Source of the DNA: a virus
Lineage: Duplodnaviria > Heunggongvirae > Uroviricota > Caudoviricetes
IMG/VR virus record: IMGVR_UViG_3300049014_000001
Span: 24,956 to 88,955 of that record
Strand: one strand, 5' to 3'
DNA length: 64,000 bases
In this document: positions 1,379 to 30,270 of the stretch, piece after piece
Layout of the letters: every line of letters starts with the position of its first letter
Numbering within the stretch: position 1 is the stretch's first letter
Made by a program: the position numbers and the translations under genes
The notes under the pieces: generated by a model
Seen by the model: the letters and a program-made list of their open reading frames with translations, nothing else
What the model was told of the DNA's origin: nothing
Database searches by the model: none

Positions 1379-1473
1379 TGGCGGAGGAAGTGAGGCTCAA
1401 ACTCACACACCCCTTTCGGAGCCTTCGGTTTTCAAGACCGCTGCCGCTAGGTCAACGCTCGGCTAATTCCCCC
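1379..1473 (-). tRNA. Class II tRNA, probably Ser (anticodon TGA); acceptor and T-loop slightly atypical
   Basis: Reverse complement has Ser-like D arm GCCGAGCG, anticodon loop CTTGAAA, a long variable arm and CCA; T-loop reads TTTGAGC. The hand fold is imperfect. Confidence 0.45.
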
Positions 1474-5358: not shown

Positions 5359-5445
5359 TGGTGCAGTGACTAGGATTTGAACCTAGACGGAACTAGCCGA
5401 CCTGCGGGTTACAGCCGCGTACCCTACCGAATGGGTGTTCACTAC
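5359..5445 (-). tRNA. tRNA-Tyr (anticodon GTA), class II with long variable arm
   Basis: 87 nt, acceptor GTAGTGA/TCACTGC, anticodon loop CTGTAAC, T-arm CTAGG-TTCAAAT-CCTAG, CCA. Confidence 0.65.
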
Positions 5446-5643: not shown

Positions 5644-5731
5644 TGGTACGCGTAGTTGGAATCGAACCAACTCTGGACTTGCGTCTCGGTAGATTAAAAG
5701 TCTACTGCCTACCCACTTCGGCATTACGCGT
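5644..5731 (-). tRNA. Class II-scaffold tRNA with Lys-type anticodon loop CTTTTAA (anticodon TTT)
   Basis: 88 nt; perfect acceptor ACGCGTA/TACGCGT, 3-bp D stem, anticodon arm GTAGA-CTTTTAA-TCTAC, ~17-nt variable stem-loop, T-arm GTTGG-TTCGATT-CCAAC, A73, CCA. Confidence 0.55.
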
Positions 5732-5822
5732 ATAAAACAGCCCTACGCTACAACGGCCACCATTGGAAGAATCCAACACAATGATATAGACGTTACACCG
5801 CAACTTCTGTCAGGCTGTATAT

Positions 5823-5906
5823 TGGTACACAAGGCGAGACTTGAACTCGCAATCCCGAAGGCCACAGGGTTTGAGCCTGCTGCGTATGCCGTTCCGCCAC
5901 TCGTGC
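5823..5906 (-). tRNA. tRNA-Leu (anticodon CAA), class II
   Basis: 84 nt; D stem GCG/CGC, anticodon arm GCAGG-CTCAAAC-CCTGT, long variable arm, T-arm GCGAG-TTCAAGT-CTCGC, CCA. Confidence 0.7.
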
Positions 5907-6034
5907 ATTGTTTAATTTGACTAGGCTATCCTCACGTCGTCTTACTCTTGGATATGCGATACCACTTTGTATGGAGCCGACAGACGATCCGCCCCGTACT
6001 AGGTTCCCTCCGCTAAGAGGCATCAGTCAAAACT

Positions 6035-6118
6035 TGGTAGGCTAGGAGGGATTCGAACCCTCAAAGGCCCTGCTTCTAAGGCAGGTAGGTGTACCAGATT
6101 TCCATTAGCCACCAGCCC
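6035..6118 (-). tRNA. tRNA-like, possibly Leu (anticodon TAG) with irregular D region
   Basis: Anticodon arm CCTGC-CTTAGAA-GCAGG, T-arm GAGGG-TTCGAAT-CCCTC and acceptor GGGCTGG/CTAGCCT are clear; about 7 extra nt lie between the acceptor and anticodon stem. Confidence 0.45.
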
Positions 6119-6274
6119 ATTATATTCTGGCTACAGTTTTGTTCAGGTCGTAGCCACCTGTCCTTGTCGGGAGTTTCCGTCCCATACGGGCCGAAACAGA
6201 TTGTAGATGGCGCTATCGCCAGATCGGACGCACTGCCGTACAGTATCGGAGTTTAACCGTACATCTACAAAACT

Positions 6275-6350
6275 TGGCGCGGGCGACAGGATTCGAACCT
6301 GCAACGAACGGCTTGGAAGGCCGACACTCTGCCACTTGAGCTACGCACGC
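6275..6350 (-). tRNA. tRNA-Gly (anticodon TCC)
   Basis: GCGTGCG TA GCTC-AAGTGGCA-GAGT, anticodon loop CTTCCAA, T-arm GCAGG-TTCGAAT-CCTGT, GCCA end. Confidence 0.75.
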
Positions 6351-6413
6351 ATTGTATTTGCTAGCATACTAACCTACTAGCGGGTGTACCCATCACACTA
6401 CTGGGCCATAACT

Positions 6414-6941: not shown

Positions 6942-7021
6942 TGGTGGAGAACATCGGATTCGAACCGATCTGATTAGCCTACTTGCAAGGCAGGTGTCCA
7001 CTCCCAGCAGACCCGATCCCC
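6942..7021 (-). tRNA. tRNA-Ala (anticodon TGC)
   Basis: GGGGATC GG GTCT-GCTGGGAGT-GGAC, anticodon arm CCTGC-CTTGCAA-GTAGG, T-arm ATCGG-TTCGAAT-CCGAT, ACCA. Confidence 0.7.
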
Positions 7022-7140
7022 AATATTTGTTACGTAGTGCTACTATACTACATGCTCAACGATTTGTCAAGCATTTTGAATTCTGGTCAGGGTAGGTGGC
7101 TCTGCCCCACCGTCCTCTCGCTTCCAAGGCGAGCCGTCTA

Positions 7141-7566
7141 CTAGGCTGACAATATACCCTGAGTATTTAGTCCTGCATACCAATTAAATTGTTCAGCAGT
7201 TCTCATAGCATGACAGTTTGCACAAAGCACCTGACATTTAGCTATCTCTTCTTTAATTTTCTTCAAAGCCAGTCCACGCATTTGTGAAACGTTTGCAGAC
7301 TTTGTACTACGATCTATGTGATCGAACTGAAGGCAAGGAACCCTAGCTTCTCCACATTCAACACATGGGTGTTCCAGCAGATAGTCATACACGTATTGCC
7401 AATTGGCTTTACGTAACTCTAATTGTTGATCGTATTTAATTTGCTTCTTTTCCTCGCTTCTGTTTGCGTGATACTTTCTATCATACTCCCGCTTGCAAGG
7501 TCTACATAGTTTAGATCTTTGTCCGTATGGCTCGTACGCCACTTGGCACGAGCTACACGTTCTCAT
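7141..7566 (-). CDS. HNH homing-type endonuclease
   Basis: 141 aa; paired Cys clusters CSSC...CRPC...CVEC and HNH core FDHIDR...N...LCANCH; immediately flanks the tRNA array. Confidence 0.8.
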   Translation of the reverse strand: MRTCSSCQVAYEPYGQRSKLCRPCKREYDRKYHANRSEEKKQIKYDQQLELRKANWQYVYDYLLEHPCVECGEARVPCLQFDHIDRSTKSANVSQMRGLALKKIKEEIAKCQVLCANCHAMRTAEQFNWYAGLNTQGILSA

Positions 7567-7582
7567 ACGCCCTCAAGTTGTT

Positions 7583-7669
7583 TGGTGCTGCCTGTGTGAT
7601 TCGAACACACGTTGGGATTTCTCCGCTGGGTTACAAAGCCAGTGCCTTCAACCTCTCAGCCAAAGCAGC
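7583..7669 (-). tRNA. Class II-scaffold tRNA with anticodon loop TTTGTAA (anticodon TGT, Thr-type)
   Basis: 87 nt; acceptor GCTGCTT/AGGCAGC, Ser-like D arm TG-GCT-GAGAGGTTGAA-GGC, anticodon stem CTGG/CCAG, long variable stem-loop GGA-GAAA-TCC, T-arm GTGTG-TTCGAAT-CACAC, A73, CCA. Confidence 0.5.
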
Positions 7670-7982
7670 ATAAATTCTTCCCGCTTACGTTTATGCGGGG
7701 AATGAAGAATCTTTCATCGCGGATTCAACACACCGTATCGGGCAACCAACCCAAGGAGAACAACGGAAGGACAGTCACCGTGAAGCAATGGAGCAACCCG
7801 TAAAGCTTCACTTCGGGGACGGTTACTGCGCCAAGCGTGGATGCAACAACCACGCCATCGAGATAGGATTACCTCCTTTCGGATGGTGAATCAAGTGGCG
7901 ACTGTCCTAATTCTGCATCTCAGCGGTTTCTTCTGAGAGCTTTATTCGTACTCGATTTCTCAAGTAACGCTATCATACACTA

Positions 7983-8189
7983 TCAAACGCTACTTGTCAA
8001 GTTTTGTGCTTTCTTAGCTTCCTTCTTGTCCTTCTTCAGGATAACTCGGACTTGTCGAAGCTGTTCTGCGATGTCCGTACGACCATTTGCGGTGTAAGTG
8101 CGAATGGCGATGTACAGTGCCTGCCTTGACACTCCCTTAGCGCGCTCTACCGCTTCCTCTAAGGTAAGGTCTTTCCATCGTTGGGCCAT
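7983..8189 (-). CDS. Hypothetical small basic protein, possibly DNA-binding
   Basis: 68-aa ORF in track with a Lys-rich tail. Confidence 0.45.
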   Translation of the reverse strand: MAQRWKDLTLEEAVERAKGVSRQALYIAIRTYTANGRTDIAEQLRQVRVILKKDKKEAKKAQNLTSSV

Positions 8190-8192
8190 TGG

Positions 8193-8531
8193 TTAAACTT
8201 TCTGAATTGTAGTCATGTCCAGTCGTGGGCCAGTAGGCTTCGTATTGCCTGTTGCTGGTACGAGAGGTGTCTTAGGGCCAGTAGCCTTGATTTCTGCGAT
8301 CTGGCGAGTCAGCTCATCCTTGTTGATGGCTTCACTAACGGCAATCTTGTAGTCGATGAGAATGTCTGCACACTTCAATCGTTCCTTCAAGCCTACCTTC
8401 TCATTGCGCATCGTCTCAGCAAGCAGATCAACCGCTTCTGGCGTAACGCTATCTAGTTGTTTCAAAAGGTCAGTAAGCTCATGCTTTCGCTTGATGAACA
8501 TCTGACCTGCTTTCAGTGCTACTACTGACAT
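8193..8531 (-). CDS. Hypothetical protein (start re-set to MSVVALKAGQ with GGAG RBS)
   Basis: Track ORF; the internal ATG at 8529-8531 has an RBS 9 nt upstream. Confidence 0.45.
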   Translation of the reverse strand: MSVVALKAGQMFIKRKHELTDLLKQLDSVTPEAVDLLAETMRNEKVGLKERLKCADILIDYKIAVSEAINKDELTRQIAEIKATGPKTPLVPATGNTKPTGPRLDMTTIQKV

Positions 8532-8820
8532 TGGGTACTCCGTGAAATACTTCGTATCATACACTACTTACCTAATTTTGTCAACTATACGCAACTGTCT
8601 TATATAACTAAGTAATATAACTATGTACACTTACTATATACTATAACATATAATTGTAATATACATAAGTAGTTTATTATTAAATTATCGATTGACTCTT
8701 CCCTTACGGGAGAGTCTTTTAATTTTATTGTTAACTATACCTTAAGTATTATATACTCCCTCACTCGCTGCGCTCGTTCGGTCGTAAGTATATAGCACTA
8801 ACTAGCTTTTGTCAAGTGTT

Positions 8821-10011: not shown

Positions 10012-10716
10012 ATGAAAAAGCTCATCGGCTATGTACGTGTCTCCACCAAGGAGCAAGGCAAGACCAAGAACGGTTTGGAGGCTCAGGCCGAAGCCATCCG
10101 TCTGTTCGCACACTATAACGGCTACGAGCTGATTGACATCGCAGAAGAAGTGATGTCCGGTGCTGATGATAACCGTCCTGTCCTCGCAGAAGTGACACGT
10201 CGAGCTGCCAAACTGGGCGCATACGTGGTCGTCAACAAGCTGGATCGTCTGTCTCGTAATGCCCTGTTCATCCTGAAGTATATCGATCAGAATAGCAAGT
10301 TCATCGTGACCATGCTTGGGGATAACGTAGACCCGTTCATGCTCCACATCTACGCCGGTTTGGCGGAAAAGGAGCGCATGATGATCGCAGAACGCACCAA
10401 GGCAGCTCTGGCCGCTAAAAAGGCCCGTGGTGAAGCTCTGGGGGCGTCTGAAGCTGTGCTGGAGAAGGCAAGGGTCAGTGCTGGAGCTGCCGAAGCCACG
10501 AAGGCAGATGACTTTGCAGCCCGTTTGCGCCCGACTCTGACCCGCATGAAGAAAGATGGCATGACCCTGCGTGAAATGGCTCAGGAATTGAATGCCAGCG
10601 GCACGAAAACGGCTCGTGGTGGCGAATGGCATCCAACAATTTTTAAAAAGGTGGTTTTTCTCTTGGTTGATTGCGGGCTCCGCCCACGCCCCAGTTGGGG
10701 CTTTACAAAAACATAG
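10012..10716 (+). CDS. Small serine recombinase (resolvase/invertase family)
   Basis: N-terminal IGYVRVSTKEQ catalytic-serine motif, ...SGADDNRP..., LDRLSRN, C-terminal HTH; about 200-230 aa. Confidence 0.85.
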   Translation: MKKLIGYVRVSTKEQGKTKNGLEAQAEAIRLFAHYNGYELIDIAEEVMSGADDNRPVLAEVTRRAAKLGAYVVVNKLDRLSRNALFILKYIDQNSKFIVTMLGDNVDPFMLHIYAGLAEKERMMIAERTKAALAAKKARGEALGASEAVLEKARVSAGAAEATKADDFAARLRPTLTRMKKDGMTLREMAQELNASGTKTARGGEWHPTIFKKVVFLLVDCGLRPRPSWGFTKT

Positions 10717-10742
10717 CTAGTACTACTAACCAAGGAGAAAAT

Positions 10743-11339
10743 ATGACCCCTGCACAACGTTGCGCAAAAGTTTCCCAGAACATGGACAACATTGCCCTCA
10801 TCACCTTCGCCATTGGCTTCTGCAAAGCCGCCCACTTCGGCCAGAAACGTAAATGGTCGTTCGAACCTTATTGGACTCACCCTATGGCGGTGGCAAACAT
10901 CCTGCATGAACACGGCCACAATGACCCTCACATGCAAATTGTCGCCCTGCTGCACGATGTAGTAGAGGACACGCCTATCACTCTGGAAGAAATCACTGAG
11001 CACTTTGGCGAAAAGGTAGCTGAAGATGTCCACTGGCTCACGAAAGTGGACTACAGCAAGCACACAGACCCCTTCGGCATGCCCCTGAAACGCGCTGCGA
11101 AGAAATTCCTTGAGAACCTTCGTCTGAGCCGCGCTCCACAGCACGTCAAAACGATTAAGCTTGCCGACCGCTTGCACAACATGACCATTCTCACGGAAGA
11201 CCCGGCTTTTGCTCCGCTCTACGCAGAAGAGACTCGTGAGCTTCTTGACTACGCCTTGAAAGAAGGCTGTCCTGTCCTGTGGGCAAAGCTGGACAAAATT
11301 ATCAAGAATTTCCAAAATCCTATTGACAAGGCTATCTAA
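10743..11339 (+). CDS. HD-domain hydrolase of the RelA/SpoT (p)ppGpp-hydrolase type (small alarmone hydrolase-like)
   Basis: H...HD motif with ALLHDVVEDT signature; start re-set to MTPAQR after RBS AAGGAGAAA. Confidence 0.65.
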   Translation: MTPAQRCAKVSQNMDNIALITFAIGFCKAAHFGQKRKWSFEPYWTHPMAVANILHEHGHNDPHMQIVALLHDVVEDTPITLEEITEHFGEKVAEDVHWLTKVDYSKHTDPFGMPLKRAAKKFLENLRLSRAPQHVKTIKLADRLHNMTILTEDPAFAPLYAEETRELLDYALKEGCPVLWAKLDKIIKNFQNPIDKAI

Positions 11340-24766: not shown

Positions 24767-25303
24767 ATGGATTTTGATGTCCTGAATGAGGAAGTCTCTC
24801 TAAGAAAGAACCCAAAAATTCCCCAGTTGGCTTGGAAATTTGAGCTGTATGCTGGCTGGAACAATTTTGAAAATAGTTTGGTAGCACTACTTGACAAGCT
24901 ACAAAAACACAGGCAAGATGTCATCTTCGACCAATCAAAGGAGAAACTTATGAACGTAGTAGTAGCGATCATTGATGAAGCATTGTCCCGTCTGTGGAAC
25001 GGGGAAAACGAAAACGACTTCTACATTGAAGGCCAAGTTCAACTTGAACGTTATGCTTGTCATGCAGTAGTTAGGGGAGCAATGGTGGTGCTTGGCATGG
25101 ACTATGACAGTTCTCAAGCACATGACGAAACTCTGAAGATCACCAAACGCATTGAAGATCGTATTGAGTACTACTTCACTGCTACTTCCTACTTGCGGGA
25201 AAAGGATGAGAACTTTGATGAGTCCACAGTGTATGCCCAGAACTTCCGCAAGCAAATGCTGCTGGACATTCGTAACCAACTGATGGAAGAGGCCCAAGGA
25301 TGA
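24767..25303 (+). CDS. Hypothetical protein
   Basis: 178-aa track ORF; first gene of the long plus-strand block. Confidence 0.5.
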   Translation: MDFDVLNEEVSLRKNPKIPQLAWKFELYAGWNNFENSLVALLDKLQKHRQDVIFDQSKEKLMNVVVAIIDEALSRLWNGENENDFYIEGQVQLERYACHAVVRGAMVVLGMDYDSSQAHDETLKITKRIEDRIEYYFTATSYLREKDENFDESTVYAQNFRKQMLLDIRNQLMEEAQG

Positions 25304-28456: not shown

Positions 28457-29116
28457 ATGACTGAACAAGTTTTTAAGGTAGGACAAAAAGTGAAGATCGT
28501 AGCGGCGGGTAGCGGTTGCCATCCACGAGACATCGGACAAACTGTGACCATCACTGGTATCAAGGCATACGGTGACGAAATGGGTGTGGAATACGATTGT
28601 AGAAACCTGTATGTTGAACAACTATCCTCTTCAGGCCGTTACGTAGCATCCGTACGGATGTTTGAACCAATCAAGGCTAACCTGAGCTTGCCTGTGTTCA
28701 CGGCTGAAGGCACTCCAGTGGAAATTATCACCGTATCTGGCCGTGACAAGAAGTTCCCAGTGCTGGCATACGAAGGTAAGGCTAAGCTGCCTTCGAAATA
28801 TACGCTGGAAGGCATCAGCAAGAGTGGTGAAGCTCGTCGCAACCTGACCAACGTCCAAGTGACAGATGAGCCTTCTGAGTACAAGGAAGAAGCTGTTGAG
28901 GAAGTAGTGCTGTATGCCAATCTGTACGACGATTCGGAGCGTGGCCTTCGTCGTCTTGATCTTGGCAACGAGTTGTACGAGTCCGTAAATGCAGCCACTG
29001 AAAGCTACAAGGAAGGTCGCATCGAGAACAAGAAACACCCTAAGCGTATCGGTGTGGCAAAGGTAACTCTGGTGAAGGGCAAACTGCCTTCCCGTTTCAA
29101 CAAGGAGGCTAACTAA
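28457..29116 (+). CDS. Hypothetical protein
   Basis: 219-aa track ORF with canonical UTR. Confidence 0.5.
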   Translation: MTEQVFKVGQKVKIVAAGSGCHPRDIGQTVTITGIKAYGDEMGVEYDCRNLYVEQLSSSGRYVASVRMFEPIKANLSLPVFTAEGTPVEIITVSGRDKKFPVLAYEGKAKLPSKYTLEGISKSGEARRNLTNVQVTDEPSEYKEEAVEEVVLYANLYDDSERGLRRLDLGNELYESVNAATESYKEGRIENKKHPKRIGVAKVTLVKGKLPSRFNKEAN

Positions 29117-30270
29117 TGGCTGAAATCAAACGTAAGATGGCGTCTGTACGCCGTATTGACAAGCTGGAAGCTATTCCCGGTGCAGACAAGATCGAAACCG
29201 CATGGATTGGTGGTTGGCCTGTCGTCGTGAAGAAAGGTGAATTCGCTCAAGGTGATCTGGCAGTGTACTTCGAAATCGATTCGTGGGTTCCGAACAAGGT
29301 TGCTCCGTTCCTGACCAAGGAAGGCTATGCCCCGAAGGAATTCAACGGTGTGCAAGGTGAACGCCTGAAGACTATCAAGCTGCGTAAGCAACTGTCACAA
29401 GGTCTGCTGCTGCCTCTGCATACTCTCCCAGCTAGTGTCGGCCCAAATTGCGACGAAGGTGAGGATGTCACAGAGGCTCTTGGTGTGCAGAAGTGGGAGC
29501 AGGAAGAAAAGACTCCTAACATGCCTCAGAGCCAGAAGACCCGTTCGTTCCCGTATTTCATCCGTAAGACGGATCAAGAACGTGCTCAGAACTACGGTCA
29601 CATGATTGCACAAAATCTGGACACTGAGTTTGAAGTGACCGTGAAGAAGGATGGTTCCAGCATCACCGTGTTCCGTGTGAACCCAAGTAGCCCGTATTAC
29701 GAAGATGCTAAACTGATGGTAAAGGGCAAGAAGACCTTCTGGGAACGGGTTGTAGCGTTCTTCAAGCGTGAACAAGACAAGCCAGTGTACGGCATTTGCT
29801 CTCGTAACGTTCTGCTGCCGTTCGAAGGCGATAGTAACTTCCACAAGGCTGCTAAGAAGCTGCTGCCATTCATGGAAGACTTTAATGAAGGCTCCGTAGC
29901 TATCCAAGCTGAGCTGGTGGCACCTGACATTCAAGGCAACTACGAGAAGGTAAGTGGTGTTGAAGTTCACATCTTTGATGTGTTCGACATTGATAAGCAA
30001 GAGTACAAAACTCCACGTGAGCGTACCAGCTTCCTTGGTGTGATGTTTGCACCTAGCTACGTACCACACGCTACCATCGTAGATAAAGGTACACTGCGTA
30101 ACATCCTGCAACTGAAGGAAGGTGAAGACTTCATGGAAAAGCTGCTTACCTACGCTTCCGGCGAAGGTGATAACGAAGGCGTCATGCGTGAAGGTGTGGT
30201 GTTCAAGGCAATGGACAAAGACTTTTCGTTCAAGGTAGTATCGAACGAATACCTGCTGAAGAAAGGCTAA
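29116..30270 (+). CDS. RNA-ligase-like nucleotidyltransferase (KxDG; Rnl family candidate)
   Basis: 384 aa; motif VKKDGSSITVF; similar in size to T4 RnlA; distinct from the DNA ligase at 26441. Confidence 0.55.
   Translation: MAEIKRKMASVRRIDKLEAIPGADKIETAWIGGWPVVVKKGEFAQGDLAVYFEIDSWVPNKVAPFLTKEGYAPKEFNGVQGERLKTIKLRKQLSQGLLLPLHTLPASVGPNCDEGEDVTEALGVQKWEQEEKTPNMPQSQKTRSFPYFIRKTDQERAQNYGHMIAQNLDTEFEVTVKKDGSSITVFRVNPSSPYYEDAKLMVKGKKTFWERVVAFFKREQDKPVYGICSRNVLLPFEGDSNFHKAAKKLLPFMEDFNEGSVAIQAELVAPDIQGNYEKVSGVEVHIFDVFDIDKQEYKTPRERTSFLGVMFAPSYVPHATIVDKGTLRNILQLKEGEDFMEKLLTYASGEGDNEGVMREGVVFKAMDKDFSFKVVSNEYLLKKG

Follow-up and report, generated by a model that had tools for sequence, protein, structure and literature searches.

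The window examined here, a 64,000-nucleotide stretch of a Caudoviricetes virus (IMG/VR record IMGVR_UViG_3300049014_000001, positions 24,956 to 88,955), contains an array of tRNA genes, one of which sets a threonine anticodon, UGU, on a class II-shaped body. Textbooks restrict long variable arms to the tRNAs for Leu, Ser and Sec and, in bacteria, Tyr. ARAGORN, from which the gene boundaries are taken, calls this element an 87-nt tRNA-Thr(tgt) at 7583-7669 on the minus strand. The first-pass annotation, a reading of the letters without database searches, had proposed an 87-nt tRNA with a UGU anticodon at this place, and Rfam model RF00005 returns the same call as ARAGORN (49.8 bits, the gathering score being 29; E = 2e-8 for a search space of 12 kb), its alignment following the ARAGORN register and covering model positions 1-71 of 71 with a 12-nt insertion in the variable region.

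A class II-shaped tRNA-Thr(UGU) gene and its viral family

The RNA reads, 5' to 3', GCUGCUU-UG-GCU-GAGAGGUUGAA-GGC-A-CUGGC-UUUGUAA-CCCAG-C-GGA-GAAA-UCC-CAAC-GUGUG-UUCGAAU-CACAC-AGGCAGC-A-CCA (arms and coordinates in Table 1), so that the Ser-like D arm, the GGA-GAAA-TCC variable stem-loop, the TTTGTAA loop, A73 and the encoded CCA described in the first-pass annotation can all be read in the sequence. That description called the T arm and acceptor perfect, which holds for the T arm and, for the acceptor, only if G·U is counted as a pair (U6·G67). It had passed over that wobble, a second one in the D stem (U12·G23), and the mismatched C31·C39 next to the anticodon loop, which leaves the anticodon stem with four Watson-Crick pairs. 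U8, G9, A14, G18G19, A21 and the T-loop GUUCGAAUC are present, and the molecule has the paired extra arm, 3-bp D stem and enlarged D loop of class II architecture. A single-sequence minimum-free-energy fold mispaired the D/anticodon region and was set aside for comparative evidence. The element is a genuine phage tRNA gene with a Thr anticodon on a class II-shaped body.

To place the gene among its relatives we compared it with cultured and metagenomic viral sequences. Megablast found no close DNA relative of window positions 7300-8300 among 50,697 GenBank phages, and blastn with the tRNA array matched GenBank phages only at isolated tRNAs of T5-like phages. With the 87-nt gene as query, blastn recovered an unannotated 86-nt homologue in the T4-like cyanophage Synechococcus phage BUCT-ZZ01. 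A scan of IMG/VR with the pattern UUGUAA-N5-CGGAGAAAUCC matched 24 loci on contigs of 4 kb to 463 kb: 17 tRNA-Thr(UGU) genes of 82-86 nt by ARAGORN, one decayed copy and six chance matches. Allowing an arm longer by 1 nt added five members, with arms GGGA-GUGA-UCCC or GGGA-GUAA-UCCC. An arm-neutral scan (UUUGUAA, a class II-sized spacer and GUUCGAAUC, with the variable-arm sequence unspecified) hit at least 120 stretches and yielded 83 extra-arm tRNA-Thr(UGU) genes among the 118 matches listed from them, with at least 73 distinct sequences; these distinct sequences among the listed matches are referred to below as the 73-member set. Taken together, the scans of viral contigs give at least about 100 distinct genes for an extra-arm tRNA-Thr(UGU), their carriers ranging from cyanophages to jumbo phages, a rough measure of prevalence, as the scans were pattern-based and classified by ARAGORN.

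Among cultured phages, Synechococcus phage BUCT-ZZ01 and two Aeromonas phages, phiA047 and PAc, provide examples. By DNA polymerase (~51% PolA identity), phiA047 is the cultured phage most closely related to the window phage; its 122 kb hold just two tRNA genes, each of them long and unannotated: an 84-nt Thr(UGU), which scores 80 bits against our family model (R1; 87.6 bits for the window gene), and a 90-nt Ile(UAU). Because no close DNA relative was found, the comparison of homologous positions that the first-pass annotation had proposed was possible only in the distant phiA047 and in a syntenic metagenomic contig, L106, and both carry a long Thr(UGU) gene.

The structure of the family is under selection. 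In a 24-sequence alignment the class II cloverleaf pairs 99.3% of its paired cells, against 72% in column shuffles and at most 47% when pairing partners are slid; double compensatory changes occur at 17 of 23 pairs, and none of 500 shuffles reaches the observed covariation. All three D-stem pairs covary, as do the 7-bp acceptor and the 5-bp T stem, and the core tertiary nucleotides are conserved (U8, A14, G15:C48, G18G19, A21, G53-U54-U55-C56, A58). The anticodon loop reads YUUGUAA throughout. Another stem register that would yield a Ser, Leu or Tyr anticodon is unsupported: across the 24 homologues UUGUAA never varies, and each of the five stem pairs beside it shows covariation. The earlier suspicion that the shape was a selected feature and not chance is borne out by this large covarying family in viral contigs, and by the recurrence of an extra-arm Lys(UUU) in other phages.

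In the 73-member set the hairpin of the variable arm is kept while its sequence is very diverse, with stems of 3-5 bp and GNRA caps in 27 of 55 called hairpins; the arm of phiA047, AGG-GAAA-CCU, is a compensatory version of GGA-GAAA-UCC. An apparently invariant CGGAGAAAUCCC arm proved to be an ascertainment artefact, since the patterns used had that sequence built in, and the idea of a sequence-specific ligand for the arm was withdrawn because the arm-neutral scan showed diverse arms. The 31:39 pair is a true mismatch in 19 of the 73 listed members (26%), C·C in four of them, and the window gene forms a subclade with those of L106 and phiA047 that has A73 and a pyrimidine·pyrimidine 31:39. The mismatch is thus no defect of the window copy alone.

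In arrays not selected via their Thr gene, the arm was present in 3 of 18 distinct Thr(UGU) genes (the other 15 being class I) and in none of 12 other Thr isoacceptors, and where Thr(GGU) or Thr(CGU) genes share an array with a long UGU gene they are class I in 16 of 16 cases, some arrays holding the full set of CGU, GGU and long UGU. An arm-specific pattern, covering one variable-arm sequence, gave 54 matches in 185,579 bacterial and archaeal species genomes (~70 expected by chance), none of them tRNA-like: all 54 failed ARAGORN and a lax stem/T-loop test. The lineage has so far been seen only in viral sequences, which does not prove its absence from cells. A full-text literature search found no description of extra-arm tRNAThr in phages, though journals outside the search may hold reports.

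The genes of the three cultured phages are unannotated in GenBank (phiA047, OM033136.1, 38069-38151; PAc, OP718284.1, 47785-47867; BUCT-ZZ01, ON615601.1, 118916-119001), and an extra-arm Asn(GUU) gene of Stenotrophomonas phage DLP_6 (KU682439.2, 107530-107612) is labelled 'tRNA-OTHER / Pseudo-GTT'. Annotation pipelines evidently miss or discount this class of tRNA, and phage tRNA repertoires are therefore under-read.

Amino-acid identity and origin of the scaffold

Bacterial Thr identity rests on G1-C72, C2-G71, G4-C69, G5-C68, G35 and U36, with position 73 minor, and bacterial Ser identity on G73, G2-C71, C11-G24, a large variable region and G30-C40 (Giegé and Eriani, PMC9976931, Table 1); C2-G71 is on record as an antideterminant for E. 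coli SerRS, and SerRS ignores the anticodon (PMC9976931). The window tRNA has G1-C72, C2-G71, G4-C69, G35 and U36, together with A73. Its 5-68 pair is C-G, not the listed G5-C68, and both 4-69 and 5-68 vary across the 24 aligned sequences; acceptor pairs 3-7 vary freely in the family as a whole. By contrast with these, G1-C72 and C2-G71 occur together in 24 of 24 aligned members, and in 73 and 71, respectively, of the 73-member set, whose discriminator is U in 62 members, A in 10 and C in one. The SerRS determinants G73 and G2-C71 are absent from the window tRNA, while the Ser-type large variable region (with a 3-bp stem), C11-G24 and G30-C40 are all present; of the 24 aligned members, 23 have C11-G24, and 30-40 is G-C in 20 and C-G in four.

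Two comparisons place these acceptor ends among other phage tRNAs. The signature GCY.../U73 is common to the family and to class I phage Thr(UGU) genes, such as those of T4, T5 and many IMG/VR arrays, which also share the loop YUUGUAA, U73 or A73, and a place in the array beside Thr isoacceptors; the class I genes differ in their 5-nt variable loop, 4-bp D stem and length of 72-76 nt. Viral tRNAs that carry the GGAGAAAUCCC arm have discriminators that match those expected for their own anticodon: U73 in 9 of 9 Cys, G73 in 6 of 7 Asn, A73 in 6 of 6 Lys and 6 of 6 Met, G73 in 2 of 2 Trp, and G73 with G2-C71 in 6 of 7 Ser tRNAs. Across IMG/VR loci L086-L189 this arm was seen on tRNAs for Cys GCA (17), Asn GUU (16), Met CAU (9), Lys UUU/CUU (6), Trp CCA (3) and Glu UUC (1).

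The window tRNA is most likely a Thr acceptor and no Ser-charged recoding device. Given its Thr-type acceptor (G1-C72, C2-G71), charging by host ThrRS, and not by SerRS, would therefore be expected. The recoding role floated in the first-pass annotation fares poorly on this evidence: the acceptor carries ThrRS determinants (G4-C69 among them) and lacks those of SerRS, and the family supplies a third isoacceptor beside class I Thr(GGU) and Thr(CGU).

The body itself resembles bacterial and phage tRNASer(UGA), with which it shares the D arm (UGGCUGAG.GGUUGAAGGCA), the 3-bp D stem, C11-G24, G30-C40 and a hairpin in the variable region, and from whose anticodon it is one base away (UGA to UGU). 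Unlike tRNASer(UGA), the family has UGU, C2-G71 (not G2-C71), A73 or U73 (not G73), and a variable stem of only 3-4 bp; the window phage holds a separate Ser(UGA)-type gene (Table 1). Genes annotated 'tRNA-Ser' in Microcystis and Flavobacterium phages were considered as mislabelled Thr(UGU) and turned out to be true Ser(UGA); they are ~77% identical to the family over the D arm and anticodon arm. Other extra-armed tRNAs, with anticodons Asn GUU, Ile UAU, Met CAU, Cys GCA, Trp CCA and Phe GAA, likewise lie one step from Ser, Leu or Tyr anticodons. The simplest origin of extra-arm tRNAs would be the remoulding of class II genes followed by adaptation of the acceptor, and the Thr lineage most probably arose from a tRNASer(UGA)-type scaffold by an A36-to-U change and remodelling of the acceptor to Thr identity (G1-C72, C2-G71).

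The allo-tRNAs (Mukai et al. 2017, PMC5389517) offer a partial parallel, as they too were discovered in metagenomes and combine a long variable arm with anticodons other than those for Ser, Leu and Tyr. They come from bacteria, their acceptor/T-stem geometry is 8/4 or 9/3, their D arms resemble that of tRNASec, and they accept serine (inferred or shown) or are inactive (PMC5389517), whereas the window family is viral, has 7/5 geometry and carries Thr-type acceptor determinants.

The tRNA array and its neighbours

The window holds 19 tRNA genes, 16 found by ARAGORN and three, Ser(UGA), Tyr(GUA) and Leu(UAG), by Rfam only, which makes the array larger than the ARAGORN list suggests. The Thr(UGU) gene is its sole Thr tRNA.

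Table 1. Features of the tRNA-Thr(UGU) gene and of its surroundings in the window
Feature	Position	Strand	Details
tRNA-Thr(UGU), acceptor 5' strand GCUGCUU	7663-7669	-	Pairs with 7587-7593 AGGCAGC; includes G1-C72, C2-G71, G4-C69
tRNA-Thr(UGU), D arm, Ser-like	7644-7660	-	3-bp stem G10-C25, C11-G24, U12·G23; 11-nt loop AGAGGUUGAA without U16/U17
tRNA-Thr(UGU), anticodon arm CUGGC-UUUGUAA-CCCAG	7626-7642	-	C31·C39 mismatch; anticodon UGU at 7633-7635
tRNA-Thr(UGU), variable region, 15 nt	7611-7625	-	C44, hairpin GGA-GAAA-UCC (7615-7624), then C-A-A-C48
tRNA-Thr(UGU), T arm GUGUG-UUCGAAU-CACAC	7594-7610	-	Read from the sequence
tRNA-Thr(UGU), A73	7586	-	Read from the sequence
tRNA-Thr(UGU), encoded CCA	7583-7585	-	Read from the sequence
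Candidate sigma-70-like promoter, TTGACA-17-TATGAT	7972-8000	-	Consensus scan, 11/12; ~300 nt upstream of tRNA-Thr; putative for the Thr-HNH unit
HNH homing-endonuclease open reading frame, 141 aa	7141-7566	-	Between tRNA-Thr and tRNA-Ala; phrog_2255, E = 2.4e-31
tRNA-Ala(UGC), 80 nt	6942-7021	-	3-bp D stem; 9-10-nt unpaired variable region; G3·U70
tRNA-Leu(UAG)	6038-6118	-	Rfam, 37.3 bits
tRNA-Lys(UUU), extra-arm, 88 nt	5644-5731	-	ARAGORN, Rfam; variable hairpin GAC-GCAA-GUC (GNRA cap), A73, loop CUUUUAA; the phage's only Lys tRNA
tRNA-Tyr(GUA)	5362-5445	-	Rfam, 42.2 bits
tRNA-Ser(UGA)-type, 91 nt	1382-1473	-	Missed by ARAGORN; G73, CCA; G3·U70 in every possible acceptor register

A second class II scaffold with a class I anticodon, as the first-pass annotation had noted, is real too: ARAGORN and Rfam both call the extra-arm tRNA-Lys(UUU). 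It keeps U39-C40, but at the site cut by the nuclease AriB (see below) its position 41 is U and not the A of E. coli tRNALys, and 87-88-nt Lys(UUU) genes likewise occur at other loci (L029/L030, L111, L116, L173 and L184). Two further genes of the array depart from the usual pattern. G3·U70 is the major alanine identity determinant, and the Ser(UGA)-type tRNA that carries it could have a possible dual Ser/Ala identity. The 80-nt Ala(UGC) is conserved with compensatory changes in L106 (5576-5655) and, judged by that conservation, appears to be another non-standard but selected tRNA shape.

The Thr gene lies, as first described, beyond an HNH gene. Contig L106 has the same order of 80-nt Ala(UGC), gap and 87-nt Thr(UGU), and its gap holds an unrelated open reading frame with an HNH motif (242 aa, 5662-6390, minus strand). 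The Thr-Ala gap thus appears, from these two sequences, to be a recurrent homing-endonuclease insertion site inside the tRNA array, and it is because of this recurrent insertion that the Thr gene seems set apart from the array.

Three near-identical sigma-70-type matches lie on the tRNA strand of this region, at 8556-8584, 7972-8000 and 7042-7070 (minus strand; TTGACA-17-TATGAT or TATAGT, 11/12), and suggest early transcription by host RNA polymerase with an E. coli-like host sigma-70. Between the middle one and the Thr gene, the ~300-nt stretch at 7670-7971 (minus strand) is free of open reading frames and more stable than 200 of 200 shuffles (z = -2.98), with no Rfam family matched; it may be a structured leader or a small RNA.

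Demand for the two remodelled tRNAs is low. In confident open reading frames ACA is the rarest Thr codon (60 of 400, 15%) and AAA the minor Lys codon (30%), and codon supplementation therefore does not explain the carriage of Thr(UGU) and Lys(UUU); as their main driver it was ruled out.

Elsewhere in the window, an RNA-ligase-family protein (29116-30270, plus strand; PF09414 and a PHA02142 OB domain) and an HD_4 (RelA/SpoT-type hydrolase) protein (10671-11339, plus strand) are candidates for tRNA-repair and anti-alarmone-toxin functions, which would fit tRNA-directed defence pressure. In other genomes, a long tRNA-Ile(UAU) of 90-96 nt stands alongside extra-arm Thr(UGU): L190 38314-38403 (phiA047), L028 2816-2911, L031 5153-5248, L002 196-290 and L106 3629-3719. 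Its extra arm has a 4-bp stem and a 7-nt loop, CAGAUUA or CAGAUAA, which is of anticodon-loop size and contains GAU. As GAU is the anticodon of the major Ile tRNA, the loop may mimic a recognition element of IleRS.

Nuclease evasion weighed against descent

Threonine tRNA(UGU) is a target of known defence nucleases. The PARIS nuclease AriB depletes tRNALys(UUU) and tRNAThr(UGU), and to a lesser extent tRNAAsn(GUU); its cleavage site falls between nucleotides 40 and 41, beside U36-A-A-U39, and it contacts U16-U17, and cleavage is abolished by U39A, strongly reduced by A41C and impaired by D-loop U16C (PMC12409363). T5 variants of exactly these three tRNAs (Lys UUU, Thr UGU, Asn GUU) neutralise PARIS (PMC12409363). 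P2 OLD acts on CNG motifs of the tRNAThr(UGU) anticodon stem, which it cuts after C28 and C40, and phage Thr tRNAs resist it only with both a motif change and a shortened stem (PMC12445682).

At the AriB site the window tRNA reads U36-A-A-C39-C40-C41, with C39 and C41 in place of the required U39 and A41, and its D loop lacks U16/U17. At the OLD site it has U28-A42 where E. coli has C28-G42, and the 31:39 pair is lost. It therefore combines the classes of change relevant to both nucleases. The extra helix, moreover, emerges beside positions 43-48, the face that AriB is modelled to bind. The resemblance to phage rescue tRNAs (T5 Lys UUU, Thr UGU and Asn GUU against AriB; coliphage tRNAThr6 and tRNAThr21 against P2 OLD; PMC12409363, PMC12445682) is thus one of a targeted UGU anticodon, a place in a phage tRNA array, changes at 39, 41, 16/17 and 28-42, and a shortened stem, and is a correspondence in sequence only. 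Rescue tRNAs are class I molecules a few bases off the host's, whereas the window tRNA has a complete class II body and its resistance is predicted only. The phage's only Lys tRNA is remodelled likewise, and extra-arm Asn(GUU) genes occur in other phages.

These data suggest, with about an even chance in our judgement, that the gene encodes a functional Thr(UGU) tRNA of a widespread viral class II-shaped lineage, Ser(UGA)-derived and ThrRS-charged, that serves as a nuclease-resistant replacement for its host counterpart. Such a tRNA, probably transcribed from an early sigma-70-type promoter, would decode ACA, and by wobble ACG, as threonine, and would make the phage independent of the host tRNAThr(UGU), which alone decodes ACA and which anticodon-arm nucleases such as AriB and OLD prefer as a target. 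The surface read by those nucleases would be altered by the extra arm, which also lies close to positions 40-43, the remodelled D loop, C39, C41, U28-A42 and a stem shortened by the 31:39 mismatch. A broader proposal, which we put forward tentatively, is that grafting a class II body, with both its extra arm and its remodelled D arm, onto class I-identity tRNAs is a recurrent phage-specific counter-defence, in which extra-arm Thr(UGU), Lys(UUU), Asn(GUU) and others like them would be camouflaged at the level of architecture from PARIS/OLD/PrrC-type nucleases while keeping synthetase and ribosome function.

Several observations weigh against the idea of a nuclease-resistant replacement. The acceptor has C5-G68 where the Thr set lists G5-C68, and Ser-type C11-G24 and G30-C40 are retained. 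The exact AriB site, UAAUCA, is kept in 11 of the 73 listed members, and escape through the anticodon arm is therefore not family-wide. The AriB and OLD rules are those of E. coli and are assumed to apply here, the nearest relatives (at only ~51% PolA identity) infecting Aeromonas and Pseudomonas. The arm is also found on Cys, Met, Trp, Phe and Ile tRNAs, which are no known AriB or OLD targets and whose anticodons, being one mutation from Ser, Leu or Tyr, fit neutral descent from class II scaffolds. Finally, class II features can be defence targets in their own right: Septu is reported to cut the variable loop of tRNATyr, and MenT3 to prefer tRNASer.

Neutral descent is accordingly a serious rival, and one we consider a real if minority possibility: the Thr tRNA would be functional, supplementing or securing ACA decoding, and the arm would be a non-adaptive relic of tRNASer(UGA) descent, kept since a class II core needs its arm to fold. 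A variable arm whose sequence drifts freely while the hairpin is kept is what such a relic would look like; the ~77% identity of true phage Ser(UGA) over the D and anticodon arms points the same way, as does the fact that no more than two base changes (in some cases one) separate each extra-armed class I anticodon seen, Lys UUU included, from one for Ser, Leu or Tyr. That phiA047 retains just Thr(UGU) and Ile(UAU), decoders of typically rare A-ending codons, would suit a role in decoding. Set against this are the low demand in the window phage, where ACA is the least-used Thr codon, and the parallel remodelling there of Lys(UUU), the other prime AriB target. A 31:39 mismatch in a quarter of the listed members would be unusual for a neutral trait. 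Furthermore, the lineage persists across very distant phages despite the availability of class I Thr(UGU) genes, and the pattern matches in cellular genomes included no tRNA, which together suggest a phage-specific advantage.

Two other explanations give the gene a different function altogether. It could be a missense suppressor of the allo-tRNA kind, with SerRS reading the long arm and serine inserted at ACA; SerRS ignores the anticodon, the C11-G24, G30-C40 and long variable region of the Ser-like body are listed bacterial Ser determinants, and Mukai et al. (PMC5389517) infer Ser identity for long-arm tRNAs with G73 or U73, the latter being the discriminator of most listed family members. 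We nonetheless think it improbable, in view of the near-invariant SerRS antideterminant C2-G71, the absence of G2-C71 and G73 (A73 in the window gene), a 3-bp variable stem much shorter than that of typical tRNASer, an acceptor signature equal to that of class I phage Thr(UGU), and the position of the gene in the UGU slot beside Thr(GGU) and Thr(CGU), as the only Thr tRNA of the window phage and one of two tRNAs in phiA047. Alternatively, the RNA might take no part in translation: it might titrate a host nuclease or toxin as a decoy, act as a primer or in regulation, or come from a pseudogene in decay. The AriB authors raise an inhibitor role for some overexpressed viral tRNAs (PMC12409363), allo-tRNA(UAU) species are inactive in translation (PMC5389517), one family copy (L003) has a degenerate acceptor, and C31·C39 weakens the anticodon stem. 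This is very improbable in our view, for all universal tRNA core nucleotides are conserved, as are the YUUGUAA loop and the synthetase identity pairs, the CCA is encoded and covariation is strong, and a decoy would need no conserved ThrRS acceptor determinants. Nothing favours the decoy suggested in the first-pass annotation over a translating tRNA, whose tertiary core and CCA are intact.

Phage rescue tRNAs are already known, and a version with Thr identity and an extra arm is, as far as we have found, apparently undescribed. The evidence points to a large covarying Thr-identity family with a long arm, with parallels for Lys, Asn, Cys, Met, Trp and Ile. Should ThrRS charge this family, synthetases of class I-identity tRNAs tolerate class II bodies in nature, and the family would provide orthogonal scaffolds ready for use. 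An arm that blocks anticodon-arm nucleases would constitute a new mode of anti-defence, through architecture instead of point mutations, and camouflage of this kind, if true, would break the textbook rule that keeps the long arm for Leu, Ser, Tyr and Sec tRNAs.

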